64,000 bases of DNA. Origin: an uncultured Gammaproteobacteria bacterium. GTDB lineage: Bacteria; Patescibacteriota; Microgenomatia; CAYGWK01. Below the pieces are notes generated by a model. It did not search any database and had not been told where the DNA came from. It worked only from the letters and a program-made list of their open reading frames with translations. The position numbers and the translations under genes are program-made. The stretch's first letter is position 1. Every line of letters starts with the position of its first letter. Of this stretch, positions 2,043 to 64,000 are shown one piece after another. Location of the stretch: NCBI GenBank assembly GCA_964353785.1, contig CAYGWK010000002.1:40293-104292 (forward strand). The letters run 5' to 3'.

Positions 2043-4448
2043 TTAGGAAGGAAGATAGACTGGAGCAAAACCTTTAAGGCTTTCTCTTTTAGGAAAGATT
2101 TTCTTTTCTTTCTTAAGATAAAGAGCAACCCTCAAGGCTTCCTCAAGGCTTGAGACAAAGACAAATTTAATATCTTTTTTGACTCTGGAAGGAACGTCTT
2201 CCAAATCTTTTTTATTTTCCTTTGGTAAAACTATCACTTTAAGTCCGGCCCGATGAGCGGCAATTACTTTTTCTTTAACTCCGCCAATCTCCAAAACCCG
2301 ACCCCGAAGAGTTATTTCTCCAGTCATCCCTACTTCCCGATGGGTGGGAATTTTTGTTAAGGCGGAAACCAAGGCGGCGGCCATGGCCACTCCGGCCGAG
2401 GGTCCATCTTTTGGAACCGCTCCCTCAGGAACATGAATATGAACATCCAAATTTTTGGCAAAATTTTCTTTAAGACCCAGAGTTTTCCAGTGACTGCGAG
2501 CAAAAGAAAAAGCAGCTTGGGCTGATTCTTTCATTATATCTCCCAAGTGACCAGTCAGAATGAGTTGTCCTTTACCGGGCATTAAAGCCACTTCAATGAA
2601 AAGAACGTCTCCGCCTGCTTCGGTCCAGGCCAGACCAGTCGCCATTCCCACTTCATTTTTCTTTTCCGCCAAAGCTGAAGTGTATTTTTGTGGTCCTAAA
2701 AACTTCCGAGCCTCCAAAATTCCAACTTCTCCTTTAACTTTTTTCCCTTGGGCTTTTTTCTTAGCTACTTTTCGTAAAATCGTTGCCAACATTCTCTCAA
2801 GTTCCCGAACTCCAGCCTCTCTGGTATAGCGACGAATCACCTCGTAAAGTGCCTCATCTTGAATTTTTATTTTTTCAAGCCCGTGAGCCCTAACTTGTTT
2901 TGGCCAAAGAAATTGCCTGCCGATATGAAATTTTTCTTCCTCGGTGTATCCTGGGAAACTGATGACTTCAAACCTGTCCCGAAGCGCTGGCGGAACAGTA
3001 TCTAAAATATTCCCAGTGCAGATAAACATCACCTCTGATAAATCAAAAGGAACCTCAAGATAATGGTCCGAGAATTCTTTATTTTGTTCCGGATCTAAAG
3101 CCTCAAGAAGTGCCGCCGAAGGGTCTCCTCGAAAATCAATGCCAACTTTATCAATTTCATCAAGCATAAAAACTGGGTTTCTGGTTCCGGCGTTTCTCAC
3201 TCCTTGAATTATTCTTCCAGGCAAAGCACCAACATAAGTTCGTCTATGTCCCCGAATTTCTGCCTCATCCCGAATTCCCCCCAAAGAAATCCGAATAAAT
3301 TTTCGTCCTAACGCCCTGGCGATTGATTTTCCAATCGAAGTCTTTCCCACCCCGGGAGGTCCAATAAAACAAAGAATTGAGGGAGTCCCGACCTCTTCTT
3401 TTTTCTGTTTCTTGCTCTTTAATTTCATTACCGCCAAATACTCAACCACCCGCTCTTTCACCTTCTTTAAACCATAGTGGTCTTCCTCCAAAATTTTGGC
3501 GGCTCGGCTAATTCCGGTATTGTTGGGGGTGGCTTTGTTCCAAGGCATCAAGATAACCCAATCAAGCCAATTTTCAATGTAAGGTCGTTCTGGAGACATT
3601 GGCGGCATTTGGGCAAAACGAGAAAGTTCTTTCTCAACTTTTTTTCTTACGTCCGAAGACATTTTAGCCTGGTGGATTTTTTGCCTTAATTCTTTGACCT
3701 GCTCGTCTTCTTCACCAGTTAACTCTCCAAGTTCTTTTTCAATTGTTCTTTTTCTTTCGCGTAAAACCGCCTCTTTCATTTCTTTTTCAAACCGTTCCTG
3801 GGTTTTAGAGGTAATTGACCGTTCAAGTTCTAAAACCCTCAATTCTCGAGTCAAATATTCACCCACCTTTTTAAGTCTGTCTCCAACGACAGCCATTTCC
3901 AAAAGCGCCTGTTTTTCCTTGGCTTTTAAGTCTAGAGTTGAGGTAATTTGGTCAGTCAGCTCGGCCGAAGAAACCCCGGAGGAAAGTCTCATCAAAACCA
4001 TGATGTCAATTGGTTTTCCTAAATTGAAAGCCCGACGATATTCAGAAATCAAATGATTTGAAACTGCTTTGACTTCTTCTGTTTCTTTAATAATTTCTGG
4101 GATTTCTGAAACCTTGACTAAAAGAAAAGGGACATTTTGAACAATTTCTTCAAGCCTAATTCTAGCCAGTCCTCTGGCAATAGCAATAGTTGTTCCATCT
4201 GTCTCCAGGATATTTTCCAAGGAAACTAAGGTTCCAACCGGGTAGAGATCTTCTTTTTCTGGTTCAGCCACTCGGGGGTCTTTTTGGGTAAAAACGGCTA
4301 AAAATCGCTCAGGAGAGCCAGTAAAAGCGGCCTTAACGGCGCTGTTTGAGCGAGGACGACCGAAAGTTAAAGGAAATTCAGTGTAAGGAAAAACGACGCT
4401 GTCTCGTAAAGCCACGGCGGGGATAATTTTTGCTGATTTGTTTACCAT
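2043..4448 (-). CDS. lon: ATP-dependent Lon protease
   Basis: 801 aa; LON N-domain, AAA+ Walker A GPPGVGKTS, catalytic Ser motif PKDGPSAG, Lys motif in C-terminal protease domain. Confidence 0.95.
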   Translation of the reverse strand: MVNKSAKIIPAVALRDSVVFPYTEFPLTFGRPRSNSAVKAAFTGSPERFLAVFTQKDPRVAEPEKEDLYPVGTLVSLENILETDGTTIAIARGLARIRLEEIVQNVPFLLVKVSEIPEIIKETEEVKAVSNHLISEYRRAFNLGKPIDIMVLMRLSSGVSSAELTDQITSTLDLKAKEKQALLEMAVVGDRLKKVGEYLTRELRVLELERSITSKTQERFEKEMKEAVLRERKRTIEKELGELTGEEDEQVKELRQKIHQAKMSSDVRKKVEKELSRFAQMPPMSPERPYIENWLDWVILMPWNKATPNNTGISRAAKILEEDHYGLKKVKERVVEYLAVMKLKSKKQKKEEVGTPSILCFIGPPGVGKTSIGKSIARALGRKFIRISLGGIRDEAEIRGHRRTYVGALPGRIIQGVRNAGTRNPVFMLDEIDKVGIDFRGDPSAALLEALDPEQNKEFSDHYLEVPFDLSEVMFICTGNILDTVPPALRDRFEVISFPGYTEEEKFHIGRQFLWPKQVRAHGLEKIKIQDEALYEVIRRYTREAGVRELERMLATILRKVAKKKAQGKKVKGEVGILEARKFLGPQKYTSALAEKKNEVGMATGLAWTEAGGDVLFIEVALMPGKGQLILTGHLGDIMKESAQAAFSFARSHWKTLGLKENFAKNLDVHIHVPEGAVPKDGPSAGVAMAAALVSALTKIPTHREVGMTGEITLRGRVLEIGGVKEKVIAAHRAGLKVIVLPKENKKDLEDVPSRVKKDIKFVFVSSLEEALRVALYLKKEKKIFPKRESLKGFAPVYLPS

Positions 4449-4458
4449 GTTTTTTAGC

Positions 4459-4487
4459 AGTCTAGCACATTAAGTGCTAAATGTCAA
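4459..4487 (-). promoter_or_regulatory. sigma70-like promoter of lon (-35 TTGACA 4487-4482, -10 TAGACT 4464-4459, 17-nt spacer) containing palindrome TTAGCAC-N5-GTGCTAg
   Basis: Read on minus strand: TTGACAtttagcacttaatgtgcTAGACTgctaaaaaacATG; spacing and position relative to lon ATG (4448). Confidence 0.5.
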
Positions 4488-4523
4488 GGGGCGAAATGAA
4501 TTGCTTTGCAATTCAAACGCCCC
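4488..4523 (-). terminator. GC-clamped perfect hairpin (GGGGCG-aaa-TGAATTGC..GCAATTCA-aa-CGCCCC) abutting lon -35; possible terminator of upstream L,D-transpeptidase transcript or regulatory structure
   Basis: Inverted repeat seen directly; on minus strand followed by UUGACAUUU. Confidence 0.4.
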
Positions 4524-4526
4524 GCA

Positions 4527-4596
4527 CCCGCCGACCAATCTTGGCACGAGGCGTGTACGAATAGTACTGAAAAGCCGAGTGCGAAGATAAGGCGGG
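4527..4596. other. conserved ~70-nt structured intergenic motif, copy 1 (second copy at 27610..27678)
   Basis: Outer stem CCCGCC…GGCGGG; core gcacgaggcgtgta[c/t]gaata[g/a]tactgaaaagccgagtgc; compensatory change keeps gtac:gtac / gtat:atac hairpin. Confidence 0.5.
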
Positions 4597-4603
4597 AAGA
4601 GGG

Positions 4604-27199: not shown

Positions 27200-27589
27200 T
27201 TAAACTTGTTCTTCTTCTGTAGGCGGCGTGGTCGTACCTCCAGGTATAGGTGTTTCCGCCGGTGGCGTCTCAGCTGCTGACGTTTCAGTTGGTGCTGTTC
27301 CAGTTGGTCCGGCTCCAGTTGTTGGTGGTGTCGGTGCTGCCGGCTCTGAGACTGGCGCTTGCCAGACAGGCATTGTGCTCATGTGTTGGTCAACTTCTAC
27401 TGCTACTTCCTCGCGAGTTTTTCCCGGAGACTGCTGCATCTGGAAATTAATCATTCCTTCTCTAACTTCCTCTTTTGTTTTTAGATTTCCACTCTCGTCA
27501 GTACAATATTTGCAATAAGGATTATCCGGCTTTCCTCCGCCATGATCGGCATCGGTGGCCATCGGTATTCCGCATGATTGGCAGTTCAT
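27200..27589 (-). CDS. zinc-ribbon (Zn_ribbon_2-like) protein with Pro/Thr-rich acidic tail
   Basis: MNCQSCGIPMATDADHGGGKPDNPYCKYCTD CxxC…CxxC; strong SD AAGGGGGTGA. Confidence 0.55.
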   Translation of the reverse strand: MNCQSCGIPMATDADHGGGKPDNPYCKYCTDESGNLKTKEEVREGMINFQMQQSPGKTREEVAVEVDQHMSTMPVWQAPVSEPAAPTPPTTGAGPTGTAPTETSAAETPPAETPIPGGTTTPPTEEEQV

Positions 27590-27609
27590 AATTTTTCACC
27601 CCCTTCTTG

Positions 27610-27678
27610 CCCGCCTAAAATCGCTGCACGAGGCGTGTATGAATAATACTGAAAAGCCGAGTGCTAAGATTAGGCGGG
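27610..27678. other. conserved ~70-nt structured intergenic motif, copy 2
   Basis: See 4527..4596; ends 20 nt upstream of start codon of 27589 gene and 27 nt after yifB stop. Confidence 0.5.
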
Positions 27679-27704
27679 TCTTATTCCTTCCAGTATAACA
27701 TTTT

Positions 27705-33752: not shown

Positions 33753-33761
33753 TTTGTGCTT

Positions 33762-34068
33762 TTGGGAAACCCGTAAGCCAGATTTTGTTTTAGGTAATCA
33801 TCAATCTAGCGCTCTCAAACCTCGACCCTTGGGAAAGCATCCTTTTACCCCGTCAAACGGGGCAAGCGGGTCTTTCGGAGATTGCAGCGGGGAGGGTTGC
33901 CTCGTTTCACTCCCGCCAGAGGCGGGACTCGTCTCTGTGGCCCTATCTTGGTCCCGCCTTTAGGGCGAGACATCCTGGTATTAGTCAGGACACCCTGCTT
34001 TCTGCTGTCTGGACTTTCCTCACTAAAAAATTGAATAATTTTTCAGTGCGATTACCCAGTCTCCCAAA
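33762..34068 (-). ncRNA. rnpB: RNase P RNA (bacterial type A-like, compact ~307 nt)
   Basis: Minus strand contains P4 signature GAGGAAAGUCCAGAC near 5' end, ACAGAGACGAG, GGUAAAAGG, and 3' CUGGCUUACGGG; P1 pairing UUGGGAGAC/GUUUCCCAA; P3 hairpin ACUGAAAAA…UUUUUUAGU. Confidence 0.75.
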
Positions 34069-35087: not shown

Positions 35088-36105
35088 CTGAATAGGAATT
35101 ATACCATGCTTTAATTAACTGCTCAACTTTTTTTTGCCAGCCCCGCCGCGTAATATCAAACCGGTGAATTTTTGGGTCTCTACGAAACCAAGTCATTTGC
35201 CTGCGGGCATAAGCATGTTCATCAAACTTCCATTTCTGGACAACTTCAGCCAAAGATTTCTTGTCTTCAAAATACTCTCTCCAAACCCCATATCCCATGG
35301 CCGTCATTGCTGGCAGGTCCCAAGCACACCCTTGTTTTAGGAGTTTTCTCACTTCTTTTTCTGCTCCCATTTTTATCTGCTCGTTTATTCTTTTATCAAT
35401 CCGTTGGTAAAGAGTTTTATATGGCGCCTTTAAACCAATAAATATAGGGTTTAGGGTATAGCGTCTAGGGACTAGGGCTCGTTTTGGAGTTTTACTAGCC
35501 AGTTCTATTGCTCGAATAAGTCGTCTTGGGTTTTTTCGGTCTGAAGCATTCATTGAGGCTGCTTTTTCTGGATCAATTCTGGCCAACATTTCGAAAAGTT
35601 TTTGGACAGACAAATCCTGGAGTTTTTGCCGAAGTTCCCAATCTGGAGGAACGCCTAAAGTCTCAATCCCATCAACTAATCCTTTGATATAAAATCCTGT
35701 TCCGCCCACAATAATCGGCAATTTTTTTCTTTTCCAGATATCAGAAATTACTTTCCAAGCCAAATTTACATAATCTGCCACCGAAAACTCCTGGGCAGGA
35801 GTCACTACATCCAGAAGCCAGGTTCTTATGCCAGCAAACAAATAATAACCAATTTGAAATTTGAAATTTGAAATTTGAAATTGTTTAGGATTTAGGATTT
35901 TGAACTTAGAATTTGCTGGCAGGTCTTTCCCAGTCCCGATATCCATTCCTTTATAAACCTGTCTTGAATCCGCGGAAACTATTTCTCCATTAAATTTCTT
36001 TGCCAAACGAAGTGCTAACGACGTTTTCCCAACGCCTGTTGGTCCGCAGATAACTAAAAGTTTGTTCATGATTTTTTGTTTATTAATTCCTCCAAAATCC
36101 TCCAT
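35071..36105 (-). CDS. miaA: tRNA dimethylallyltransferase MiaA (carries 31-codon in-frame insertion)
   Basis: P-loop GPTGVGKTS, SADSRQVYKGMDIGTGK; insertion between GTGK and LLDV relative to E. coli MiaA. Confidence 0.85.
   Translation of the reverse strand: MEDFGGINKQKIMNKLLVICGPTGVGKTSLALRLAKKFNGEIVSADSRQVYKGMDIGTGKDLPANSKFKILNPKQFQISNFKFQIGYYLFAGIRTWLLDVVTPAQEFSVADYVNLAWKVISDIWKRKKLPIIVGGTGFYIKGLVDGIETLGVPPDWELRQKLQDLSVQKLFEMLARIDPEKAASMNASDRKNPRRLIRAIELASKTPKRALVPRRYTLNPIFIGLKAPYKTLYQRIDKRINEQIKMGAEKEVRKLLKQGCAWDLPAMTAMGYGVWREYFEDKKSLAEVVQKWKFDEHAYARRQMTWFRRDPKIHRFDITRRGWQKKVEQLIKAWYNSYSDAEKS
35829..35921. mobile_element. 93-nt AT-rich palindromic mini-element inserted in frame in miaA; 10-bp terminal inverted repeats TGCCAGCAAA/TTTGCTGGCA; internal (aatttgaa)x4 and (ttaggatt)x2
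   Basis: Seen in sequence; homologous core aaattgtttaggatttag…cttagaattt shared with 63561..63653. Confidence 0.5.
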
Positions 36106-62576: not shown

Positions 62577-63059
62577 TTACCATCTAAAGTGGGCGAAGGC
62601 TTTATTCGCTTCGGCCATGCGGTGAACATTTTCTTTTTTCTTCACCGCTCCGCCAGTGCCGGCGGCGGCATCTTCAATCTCCGCTGCCAGTTTTTCGGCA
62701 AAAGTATGAAATTCTTTATTGGAACGAGCTAGGGCAGACTGAATTAACCAGCGAATAGCCAGGGCTTCCTGTCTTTCTCCTCGAACCGGCGCTGGCACCT
62801 GATAAGCCGCTCCCCCGATCCGTCTTGGGCGGACCTCCATTTGCGGCTTAATATTCTCTATTGCCAAATTAAAAACCGAAATAGGTTCCTTTTTAGTTTT
62901 CTCCTTAAGTAAATCAAAAGCCTGAAAAATTTCCCTTTGGGCAACTGTCTTTTTACCTGACCTCATTGTCCGGTTTATCAACTTCGTCACCAAGACTGAC
63001 CCAAAAAGTGGGTCTGGGGAAATTTTTCTTTTTTTAATCCTCTTTTTGCCCCTCGGCAT
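62577..63059 (-). CDS. rpsG: 30S ribosomal protein S7 (start MPRGKK; ORF track extends to 63131)
   Basis: S7 family. Confidence 0.9.
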
Positions 63060-63552
63060 TTTCTCCTCCTTCTGCTTTTGGCTCTTCTGTTTTTGGTTCT
63101 TCAGCAGCCTGAACTCCGACAGTTGCCCCAACCGGAGTTACCGCTCCGGAAATTTTAGTTCCGTAGCGAGAACGACCTTTCTTTCGGCCAACTACTCCAG
63201 TGGTATCGTATTTACCTCGAACAACGTGGTATTTAACTCCAGGCAAATCTTTAACCCTTCCTCCTCTGACTAAAACGATTGAATGCTCGGCTAACTCATG
63301 GCCAATTCCTGGGATATAGGCAGTAATTTCTTGTTTGTTGGAAAGTCTAACCCGAGCCACTTTGCGCAGGGCCGAGTTTGGTTTTTTAGGAGTCATGGTT
63401 TTGACCAACAAAACCACACCCTTTTTAAAGGGACTTTTTACCTCCTTCATCCGTCTTTGTCTAGCATTAAAATATTTTCGCAGGGCGACAACCCGAAGTT
63501 TCTTTTTAATTTTTTTCCTGCCTTTTCGAACCAGTTGATGAATAGTTGGCAT
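63034..63552 (-). CDS. rpsL: 30S ribosomal protein S12 with ~40-aa acidic C-terminal extension overlapping rpsG start by 26 nt (start MPTIHQLV)
   Basis: S12 core [11 protein letters not shown]…[10 protein letters not shown]…; extension …[22 protein letters not shown]. Confidence 0.85.
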
Positions 63553-63560
63553 AATTACGA

Positions 63561-63653
63561 AAATTTCCAAATCCTAATTTCTAAGTTCTAAATAAATCCA
63601 AATGACCAAAATTCAAAATTGTTTAGGATTTAGATATTAGTGCTTAGAATTTT
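63561..63653. mobile_element. second copy (~93 nt) of AT-rich palindromic mini-element in rpsL-rpoC spacer
   Basis: Core aaattgtttaggatttagatattagtgcttagaattt vs miaA copy; left arm aaatcctaatttctaagttctaaa is near reverse complement of right arm. Confidence 0.45.
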
Positions 63654-63667
63654 ACCACAATTTAGGT

Positions 63668-64000
63668 TCACTTTTCAATCTTTGCTCTCTCTGGAAGAAC
63701 AGGGATAAGTCTTCCAATAATCACATTTTCTTTAAGTCCCAAAAGTTTATCTTCTCTCCCCTGAACCGCCACATCTGCTAAAACATTAGTTGTCTCCTGA
63801 AAAGAGGCGGCCGAAAGCCAAGACTCGGTATTTATAGCTGTTCTAATTAGCCCCAGAATAACGGTTTGGCCAGTCGCTGGTTGTCCACCACCTTTTTTAA
63901 TTTGAGAATTTTCTTCTTCAAAACGAACTTTATCCACCAGATCCCCAGGCAAAAGAGTCGTCTCTCCCGAAGAAGCAATTCTTACCTTCTCGCTCATTTT
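63668..64000 (-). CDS. rpoC: DNA-directed RNA polymerase beta' subunit, C-terminal end (gene continues beyond window)
   Basis: …LKENVIIGRLIP… conserved beta' C-terminus; no start within window. Confidence 0.8.
   Translation of the reverse strand, partial: KMSEKVRIASSGETTLLPGDLVDKVRFEEENSQIKKGGGQPATGQTVILGLIRTAINTESWLSAASFQETTNVLADVAVQGREDKLLGLKENVIIGRLIPVLPERAKIEK

Follow-up and report, generated by a model that had tools for sequence, protein, structure and literature searches.

A palindromic element built of 7-nt units in the rpoC-rpsL spacer of a Microgenomates-like bacterium, and its relatives in bacterial genomes and viral contigs

Introduction

REPINs, which are paired repetitive extragenic palindromic (REP) sequences, are specific to a species or genus and are co-inherited with a single RAYT gene. 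The R sites of phage T7 are intercistronic hairpins of polycistronic phage messages that are recognised by RNase III, and they are not known to be dispersed families shared between unrelated genomes. Here we describe an imperfect palindrome built of 7-nt units that lies between rpoC and rpsL at the right end of a 64,000-nt stretch of contig CAYGWK010000002.1 (positions 40,293 to 104,292 of the forward strand; the whole stretch is called the window), and compare it with these and other small repeats. Rickettsia palindromic elements (RPE) are repeats of about 100-150 nt that are found between genes and are also inserted in frame into unrelated housekeeping genes, whose products thereby gain a peptide segment (PMC10969869). 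Correia elements, other transposable elements of the miniature inverted-repeat type (MITEs) and enterobacterial repetitive intergenic consensus (ERIC) sequences are co-transcribed, form hairpins and often lie directly upstream of genes; promoter-like boxes occur in some of them, and RNase III cuts some at the paired repeats (PMC10969869). Direct repeats of the heptamer TAACTGA are known from Beggiatoaceae, cyanobacteria and Bacteroidetes, where they precede start codons by a few nucleotides; the proposal has been made that S1, Csp or Csr proteins bind them (PMC4679880). In Nostoc, TTTTGAA heptamers are found near start codons (bioRxiv 10.1101/2022.06.06.494920).

Results

The rpoC-rpsL spacer contains a palindrome of 7-nt units

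Genes at the right end of the window are on the minus strand. The spacer between rpoC and rpsL (Table 1) is present with identical sequence in an independent Logan contig (L001; contigs and loci are cited by such numbers), in which the complete rpoC is called as 1128 aa, and is therefore no accident of assembly. The best matches of the RpsL and MiaA proteins of the window are in metagenome-assembled genomes (MAGs) of Shapirobacteria, Gottesmanbacteria and Microgenomates; the host is Microgenomates-like and belongs to Patescibacteria, the candidate phyla radiation (CPR).

An inverted-repeat search paired nucleotides 63569-63593 with 63628-63652 (25 nt, 76% complementary) and returned several alternative registers, because each arm has a period of 7 nt. 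Local alignment of the spacer with its own reverse complement gave a score of 17, compared with 9.6±1.45 for dinucleotide shuffles, only one in 300 of which reached 17. This was the top inverted-repeat score among all 115-nt windows of the 64 kb; a score of 15, joint second, was obtained at the miaA locus near 35.8 kb. A sequence-only reading of this DNA had described a palindrome of about 93 nt filling the whole spacer, and had named shuffled controls as the yardstick. By that measure the imperfect palindrome is real and goes beyond what AT-rich sequence produces by chance, while its core is limited to about 85 nt (63569-63653) of the 115. The core begins 14 nt past the rpoC stop codon and ends 16 nt ahead of the rpsL ATG.

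On the gene strand the 5′ arm has CTAA every 7 nt and includes the GCAC and TATC variant units of the family described below. Nucleotides 63622-63652(−) match the family arm pattern, AAATYCKAANNNCKAANNNCKAANNNCKAAA, exactly, and the second arm matches it at 63562-63592(+) with two mismatches. Both arms read on the gene strand are attCTAAgcaCTAAtatCTAAatcCTAAaca ... tTTAGaacTTAGaaaTTAGgat. The inner module, which was recognised by reading the spacer against loci L121, L084, L153, L099 and L308, is present on one side only, and the window copy is thus a short member of the family. GCAC and TATC units together in one arm, as in this 85-nt copy, are a rare arrangement that was also found in L058. 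The predicted fold of the spacer RNA in the rpsL sense had a free energy of −20.4 kcal/mol (z = −1.8; 9 of 200 shuffles were as good) and left about 14 nt before the AUG unpaired. The antisense fold was better, at −21.2 kcal/mol (z = −3.4), because of G·U pairs.

The palindrome belongs to a family found in many phyla and in viral contigs

A sample of 80 metagenomic loci encoding relatives of RpsL was searched with the spacer using nhmmer, and the matches were then read. Homologous elements were found in the rpoC-rpsL spacer of L058, whose RpsL is 64% identical to that of the window, in the rpsL-rpsG spacers of L042 and L074, in the rpsG-fusA spacers of L031 and L055, in the rplV-rpsC spacer of L018, and elsewhere in L026. 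The arm signature derived from these CPR loci, AAATYCKAA-N3-CKAA-N3-CKAA-N3-CKAAA, gave at least 120 exact matches in GTDB species-representative genomes and at least 120 in IMG/VR viral contigs. Taxa are given here as they appear in record titles and labels. Among the genome matches listed, the titles named Planctomycetota (about 24), Patescibacteria of many classes (about 23), Desulfobacterota or 'delta' (about 18), Acidobacteriota (about 11), Verrucomicrobiota (about 10) and Bacteroidota (about 10, including the isolate Mucilaginibacter sp. SG564). Nitrospirota, Chloroflexota, a cyanobacterium, Omnitrophota, Binatia, Fibrobacterota and proteobacteria were also among the matches listed, as were two MAGs with the unverified label Thermoplasmata. 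Neighbouring genes were uninformative for the archaeal and giant-virus labels, which are unverified.

The elements are AT-rich islands, even where the contig has a G+C content of 60-65%. Positions outside the search pattern are conserved too (...CAAATYC..AA), and members from different phyla have in common an inner module (CAAATGACCAAAA, AAATTCAAAA) and special units (AAGCAC, AATATC). The sharing of outside-pattern positions and inner modules across phyla indicates that these are homologous copies and not convergent simple repeats. The spacer had no match in Rfam 15 at the gathering score, and five well-formed members searched at E ≤ 1 gave only two chance matches to miRNA models (E = 0.4-0.8). 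A canonical member had no blastn match in cultured phages and plasmids, to which low-complexity masking may contribute, and a full-text literature search with the arm sequences found no paper. It appears that this family of small palindromic elements has not been catalogued previously.

The 83 elements that make up the family as analysed are 60-200 nt long. When an arm profile hidden Markov model (HMM) was run over 322 sequences (2.69 Mb), 412 arms were found. Adjacent arms were in the order A-rich then T-rich ('+-') in 93 pairs and in the reverse order ('-+') in two, and the mode of the total length was 120-160 nt. An arm consists of about four AAATYCK(AA) heptamers, with the A-rich arm at the 5′ side and its T-rich complement at the 3′ side, on either strand. 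A conserved inner module, ACAAATYC...CAAATGACCAAAA, follows the arm toward the loop, and the usual termini are TAAATYCG...CGRATTTA. The window copy agrees with this architecture in its arm pattern and HMM matches, its '+-' order at 85 nt, its inner module and its position in a short spacer. Four of the five members tested folded as a single long, interrupted hairpin (z = −3.6 to −5.6).

The two arms of an element are not identical, and the unit types, GCAC and TATC among them, keep to fixed places. Units 1 and 4 have ATC opposite ATT, unit 2 has ATC opposite GCA, and unit 3 has TAT. Units of the same index agree less often than units of different index, so that opposite units are anti-correlated. 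No index-specific covariation of the G/T position was detected (permutation p = 0.55), and the G/T preference is a genome-level one. Because G/T agreement is genome-wide and opposite units are anti-correlated, covariation gives no support for a strictly paired helix. It follows that every heptamer is conserved for itself, and that the mismatches are conserved features. Sense and antisense folds were alike (14 better, 21 worse, p = 0.14), giving no RNA-strand signal; the GCAC-type arm lay 5′ on the sense strand in 15 cases and 3′ in six, which is suggestive only.

Some phage and MAG stretches contain up to three copies in 4 kb (L308, L254, L177 and L129). In L254 (11903-12226) an unrelated repeat with units GTCATCCTGAGC... 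is nested in the loop of a family element, from which it follows that small repeats insert into one another. The loop of the L112 member contains a G+C-rich hairpin followed by TTTTTT.

A second member of the family lies in frame in miaA

The spacer palindrome had been taken in the sequence-only reading for the second of two copies in the window. Nucleotides 35871-35914 and 63609-63652 are 82% identical over 44 nt, and form the top AT-rich direct repeat of the window. This pair has no window-wide significance, as a blastn score of 20 was reached by the best self-match in 16 of 40 third-order Markov simulations. Pairwise similarity was consequently dropped as proof of kinship, and the family pattern and HMM were used instead. 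The pattern, which was derived mostly from other genomes, has exactly three sites in the window with up to two mismatches, namely both spacer arms and the miaA copy, where 0.01 would be expected. An arm HMM built without the window sequence matched 63653-63611(−) with E = 6.2e-8, 35916-35872(−) with E = 2.9e-6 and 63569-63604(+) with E = 1.1e-4; its next-best match in the window had E = 0.12. The kinship of the two copies thus stands on the family pattern and the leave-window-out HMM, and would not have stood on their pairwise similarity. A third fragment proposed at about 6190 (~6192) falls away: it is an 11-mer, of which about 16 are expected by chance, and has no HMM match.

The miaA arm is translated. 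Its codons GCA AAT TCT AAG TTC AAA ATC CTA AAT CCT AAA CAA encode the peptide ANSKFKILNPKQ, and the (TCAAATT)n that follows on the coding strand encodes FQISNFKFQI. Fold z-scores of the 93-nt block that contains the arm (Table 1) were −3.0 and −3.8. In an alignment of MiaA proteins the arm falls at a variable insert, which four homologs do not have. In L323, where MiaA is 55% identical, an arm is present in frame at the corresponding place (HMM E = 1.5e-4), and in L324 inner-type units take the place of the arm. The conservation of the miaA arm hints at a constraint on the nucleotides beyond the protein level. Two genes upstream of miaA in the JGI contig of one MiaA homolog (P0132) there is a gene with a weak match to PF01797 (Y1 or IS200-like transposase), which is the sole indication, close to a family member, of a transposase that recognises hairpins.

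Filled and empty sites at the rpoC-rpsL junction

In the closest relative available (L322, RpsL 96% identical) the rpoC-rpsL spacer is 27 nt long, and an 87-nt segment of the window spacer is absent (Table 1). Where RpsL is 79-80% identical, the spacers of the relatives are 1-4 nt long, have unrelated content or contain a canonical terminator (L002), and the orthologous spacers of other relatives are mostly 1-50 nt. These comparisons favour a gain in the window lineage over a loss in L322.

A promoter-like site precedes the element, and its −10 box overlaps the element's outer end. The equivalent site in L322 is TTGCAC-17-TGaTACAAT, giving TTGnnn-17/18-TGnTAnAAT as the form common to the two. 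Since 87 nt lie between the −10 box and the ATG, the element would be transcribed as a leader of rpsL if the promoter is real.

Other rpoC-rpsL junctions show further arrangements. The canonical terminator of L002 is cggaaacg...cgtttccgTTTTTTTT. In many CPR relatives (L004, L005, L016, L023, L036, L037 and others) the distance from the rpoC stop to the rpsL ATG is 1-11 nt; this closeness implies that RNA polymerase β′ and S12 are co-transcribed and possibly coupled in translation. The spacers of L066, L057, L012, L008 and L048 contain AT-rich palindromes or tandem heptamers that have a 7-nt period and a different sequence, such as (AAAAGTC)n...(GACTTTT)n in L066 and (AAATTTA)n in L008.

Family members lie between a stop codon and the next ribosome-binding site

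For 41 elements both neighbouring genes were called. The flanking genes were co-directional in 36 cases, convergent in four and divergent in one. The median distance from the upstream stop codon to the element is about 5 nt, with TAA often overlapping the terminus, and the median distance from the element to the downstream start is about 11 nt. The genes downstream in 30 unselected genome cases included rplK, rpsG, rpmA, rplP and groEL, together with assorted enzymes.

In 39 phage loci with a shared major head protein (phrog_212) the element is located between the scaffold-like and capsid genes, directly before AAGGAGG-ATG. The same junction in related phages is either empty (a TAATG overlap) or occupied by this element or by other heptamer arrays. 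Arrays or palindromes of the latter kind, for example (AACATTG)6 and (GAACGTW)7, were seen in L280, L281, L243, L254, L261 and L271/L277, and at all of these junctions the ribosome-binding segment AAAGGAGGAAC is duplicated on both sides. The scaffold-capsid junction appears, from these sequences, to be a hot spot for several kinds of heptamer array.

Members inside reading frames were also found outside miaA. An arm at 2377-2407 of L012 is in frame in an MltG/YceG-like open reading frame (ORF) (…VSNAKCQILNAKCN…). A 236-nt element with a lysine-rich interior, at 20036-20271 of L018, extends the ORF upstream of rpsC, presumably rplV, as a C-terminal extension of L22.

Coordinates and other features of the window

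Table 1. Features of the palindrome, its surroundings and the related arm in miaA (window coordinates)
Feature	Position	Strand	Remarks
rpoC, 3′ end	63668..64000	−	Stop TGA at 63670-63668; translation ends ...PVLPERAKIEK-stop
rpoC-rpsL spacer	63553..63667	−	115 nt, ~24-25% G+C
rpsL	63034..63552	−	ATG at 63552; 172 aa; PF00164; first gene of the str cluster rpsL-rpsG-fusA-tuf
Heptamer-built palindrome core	63569..63653		Two arms and one-sided inner module; arm-HMM matches on both strands; score 17
Gene-strand arm (5′ arm in the rpsL mRNA sense)	63611..63653	−	AAATTCTAA GCACTAA TATCTAA ATCCTAA ACAATTT
Second arm	63569..63604	+	AAATCCTAA TTTCTAA GTTCTAA ATAAATCC; on the gene strand a T-rich 3′ arm ...TTAGAACTTAGAAATTAGGATTT
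Inner module	63594..63618	+	AAATCCAAATGACCAAAATTCAAAA; one side only
Segment absent from L322	63557..63643	−	87 nt; alignment columns 118-204; flanks near-identical
Promoter-like site	63649..63678	−	TTGAAA (63678-63673), 18 nt, extended −10 TGgTAAAAT (63657-63649); 10/12 consensus positions, with TG
miaA arm ('first copy')	35872..35916	−	In frame; HMM E = 2.9e-6; 1 mismatch to the pattern
(AATTTGA) x4.6, adjoining the miaA arm	35851..35882		Perfect tandem heptamers; Tandem Repeats Finder score 64, 100% matches
93-nt (31-codon) block in miaA	35829..35921		Bracketed by a perfect 10-nt inverted repeat, TGCCAGCAAA / TTTGCTGGCA

RpsL of the window has a C-terminal extension of about 35-40 aa (63034-63140, minus strand) that is acidic and of low complexity. 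A 15-nt tandem repeat (63069-63102) codes for part of this tail, which overlaps with the beginning of rpsG and is variable among homologs.

A motif of about 70 nt occurs twice on the minus strand, at 4525-4600 and 27607-27682, with 88-92% identity. The two copies lie just upstream of the minus-strand ORFs 2043..4448 (801 aa) and 27200..27589 (129 aa), respectively. The motif has a hairpin-like fold of 17 pairs closed by CCCGCC/GGCGGG, with one compensatory change from C-G to U-A, and has no match in Rfam at E ≤ 1. Possibly it is a leader common to both ORFs, or else a small RNA. In the region before the 801-aa ORF (4449-4500, minus strand) a G+C hairpin (GGGGCG...CGCCCC) is followed by TTGACA-17-TAGACT, with an inverted repeat TTAGCAC-TTAAT-GTGCTAG between the hexamers that resembles CIRCE (controlling inverted repeat of chaperone expression). 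By its sequence this region looks like a repressor-controlled promoter. RNase P RNA of class A (33758-34067, minus strand, 121 bits) and three tRNA genes (Glu-CTC, Gln-CTG and Pro-GGG) are ordinary.

Discussion

The palindrome between rpoC and rpsL is one member of a family whose copies share their arms, their inner module and their position between genes. We think it somewhat better than an even chance that these are non-autonomous, copy-spreading palindromic repeats of the REPIN, RPE or Correia kind, which are tolerated in spacers and protein loops, are co-transcribed with their neighbours and likely influence mRNA or translation. On this account about 87 nt were gained between the promoter-like −10 box and the rpsL ATG in the window lineage. 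The element would then be transcribed as the 5′ leader of rpsL and, in read-through transcripts, also as the 3′ trailer of rpoC. In the RNA it is predicted to form a long AU-rich hairpin with interruptions, whose end lies about 16 nt ahead of the AUG, with the start region left free. The repeat would survive where it is tolerated, that is in short intercistronic gaps from a stop codon to the following ribosome-binding site and at times, in frame, in protein surface loops like that of MiaA. The likely consequence would be a modulation of mRNA processing, of mRNA stability or of translation of the downstream cistron, with no termination of transcription. A parasitic element had been one of the options in the sequence-only reading, and is broadly borne out by the dispersed family, by the presence or absence of 87 nt relative to the closest relative, and by orthologous spacers of mostly 1-50 nt. 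What that reading missed is the 7-nt periodicity of the arms, a family extending far beyond the host genome, and the position of the element past a promoter-like −10 box, where it would be an rpsL leader.

Several observations weigh against this account. Near-identical arms across phyla and viruses are unusual for a MITE or REPIN, which are normally lineage-specific. Only one '+-' pair more than 400 nt apart was found in the 2.69 Mb of loci, so that no long autonomous version was seen there, and clustering of the neighbouring ORFs revealed no recurrent transposase or recombinase, the recurrent neighbours being phage structural and head genes instead. As for copy number in the host genome, the 64-kb window has two. 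The alignment of the filled site with the empty site of L322 allows several placements of the junctions, none of which gives a clean target duplication; a TA...TA placement costs a 2-nt indel. The polarity of the 87-nt indel is suggested by outgroups only. The window and L058 elements share rare unit arrangements though their RpsL proteins are only 64% identical, and by direct reading the miaA arms of the window and L323 are identical at 33 of 37 nt; these two observations suggest constraint at the nucleotide level, and so favour a functional reading. Finally, the family loci were ascertained by a strict, exact pattern of four heptamers, and their ORFs were called by a simple longest-ORF rule, which is crude.

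In the main alternative, which is a serious one, function would be primary and spread secondary. We regard it as less likely than not, but well possible, that the element is a conserved cis-regulatory module in which the heptamers are putative sites for an abundant, conserved nucleic-acid-binding protein, about one protein per 7 nt. Cold-shock-domain proteins or ribosomal protein S1 could be candidates on RNA, and a heptad binder of the ribbon-helix-helix type on DNA. Placed before a ribosome-binding site, such a module would increase or buffer expression of the cistron that follows, or uncouple it from the preceding one, here rpsL from rpoC. Heptamer identity is kept more strongly than the complementarity of the arms, opposite units differ systematically, the distance to start codons is stereotyped, and divergent, promoter-containing spacers are depleted (1/41). 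Conservation of the miaA arm in nucleotides between 55%-identical orthologs points the same way, as does the occurrence of different heptamer arrays at one scaffold-capsid junction of related phages, and there is the analogy with the TAACTGA (PMC4679880) and Nostoc TTTTGAA (bioRxiv 10.1101/2022.06.06.494920) heptamers. An association with highly expressed genes also favours it: the genes downstream include rplK, rpsG, rpmA, rplP and groEL in the 30 unselected cases, and the major capsid gene in the 39 phage loci; however, most of the unselected genes encode ordinary enzymes that have no theme in common, and short co-directional spacers abound in ribosomal-protein operons, which could account for the share of these operons. 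The closest relative has no element at this junction and most relatives have spacers of 1-50 nt, so that the element is dispensable for rpsL expression, and the equality of sense and antisense folds gives no sign of a strand read as RNA.

Termination or insulation between rpoC and the str operon, as proposed in the sequence-only reading, is improbable. The site does lie between two units that are transcribed separately in many bacteria, a hairpin with a U-rich 3′ arm is possible, a few members lie between convergent genes, and the loop of L112 contains the G+C-rich hairpin followed by TTTTTT. However, a scan of both strands of 63553-63667 found no G+C-rich stem-loop with a T/U run, and the intrinsic terminator class was rejected; the stem has few G-C pairs, its sense fold is weak (z = −1.8), and it does not look like the canonical terminator of L002. 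Many CPR relatives manage with 1-11 nt and no terminator between rpoC and rpsL, and other members lie within operons directly before essential genes (rpsG, fusA, rpsC, rplK and rplP) or in frame in ORFs. Still less probable is a mobile promoter whose terminus TAAAT(T/C) supplies or reinforces a −10 box, as in some Correia elements. Correia elements and other MITEs do carry sigma-70-like promoters (PMC10969869), TGgTAAAAT overlaps the outer heptamer, and the canonical termini are TAAATYC. The empty site of L322, however, already has an equally good TGaTACAAT, so that the box predates the 87 nt or is independent of it, and family members are depleted from divergent spacers and lie mostly inside operons. 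Chance similarity of AT-rich, low-complexity sequence can be set aside almost with certainty. It would account for the third fragment, and the pair of window copies is not significant alone, but it does not account for the inverted-repeat score relative to shuffles and its top rank in the window, for three pattern sites where 0.01 are expected, for leave-out HMM matches down to 6e-8, or for hundreds of homologous copies with modules outside the search pattern.

A bolder proposal joins spread and function, and we hold it unlikely, though well short of negligible. It is that pan-bacterial, phage-borne 'heptad palindromes' form a cis-module that spreads horizontally and is positioned directly before ribosome-binding sites to set expression of the next cistron (for ribosomal proteins, chaperonin or phage capsid), with a near-universal nucleic-acid-binding protein reading the 7-nt units, about one per heptamer. 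The proposal includes selection on the nucleotides even inside a coding region (miaA) and a mechanistic link to the TAACTGA and cyanobacterial heptamers. If true, it would give a portable control element for translation or mRNA stability that is shared across phyla.

REP, RPE and Correia repeats are usually lineage-specific. Here one 7-nt grammar and one inner module recur across CPR, Planctomycetota, Acidobacteriota, Bacteroidota, phages and others, placed to nearly the nucleotide in the gap from a stop codon to the following ribosome-binding site; among these places are ribosomal-protein operons of genome-reduced CPR bacteria and the front of phage capsid genes. If selfish, this is an unusually promiscuous non-autonomous element; if it serves a function, it is a portable module of expression control and gives a way into the long-unexplained heptamer repeats before starts. 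In practice such elements create spurious ORFs, lineage-specific protein inserts (MiaA) and hypervariable spacers of use for strain typing, and they are absent from Rfam.

Some known classes were considered and rejected. The TIGR-Tas arrays associated with CPR and phages have tandem units of about 36 nt with edge and loop repeats, box C/D motifs and a Nop-domain tas gene nearby (PMC12045711), as against a 7-nt period and a single 85-nt palindrome. Integron attC sites, which a placement between cassettes had brought to mind, were dismissed because no RYYYAAC / GTTRRRY boxes were seen by eye and the contexts are ribosomal-protein operons. The CIRCE/HrcA operator recalls the family in its TTAGCAC (compare TAAGCAC), but neither the spacing nor the half-sites agree, and the family does not require the GCAC unit.

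The likeness to RPE is one of function, and no similarity of sequence is claimed. As with RPE, a family arm is translated inside a housekeeping protein (MiaA, ANSKFKILNPKQ...) in at least two genomes, with further in-frame cases in L012 and L018. RPE are confined to Rickettsia, are not built of 7-nt units and have no stereotyped placement before starts, whereas the present family occurs in many phyla and in phages. With Correia and ERIC elements it has in common small size and terminal inverted repeats (arms 76% complementary), and termini TA AAT...ATT TA that are compatible with a TA target. It differs from them in having arms that are repetitive heptamer arrays instead of unique inverted repeats, in its cross-phylum spread, and in the lack of a related transposase or autonomous element in the family loci examined. 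Two inverted units in one extragenic hairpin of about 100 nt recall REP and REPIN sequences, which are likewise rare in divergent spacers and enriched in co-directional and convergent ones (compare 36:4:1 here). Unlike these, the family recurs with the same sequence across phyla and has no GTAG-type REP signature; the cross-phylum identity argues against a classical REPIN. T7 R sites are similar in placement and shape only, as long imperfect hairpins with internal loops, set between cistrons directly before the ribosome-binding sites of highly expressed genes, here the major capsid gene in many phage contigs. The family differs from the TAACTGA type in having two inverted, non-identical arrays of another heptamer and an inner module in one hairpin. 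It resembles the heptamer direct repeats in its 7-nt units, in arrays of 2-6 or more placed a few nucleotides before starts, in indels that proceed by steps of 7 nt, in varied downstream genes that include ribosomal proteins, and in a patchy cross-phylum spread with no known mechanism of transfer (PMC4679880; bioRxiv 10.1101/2022.06.06.494920).

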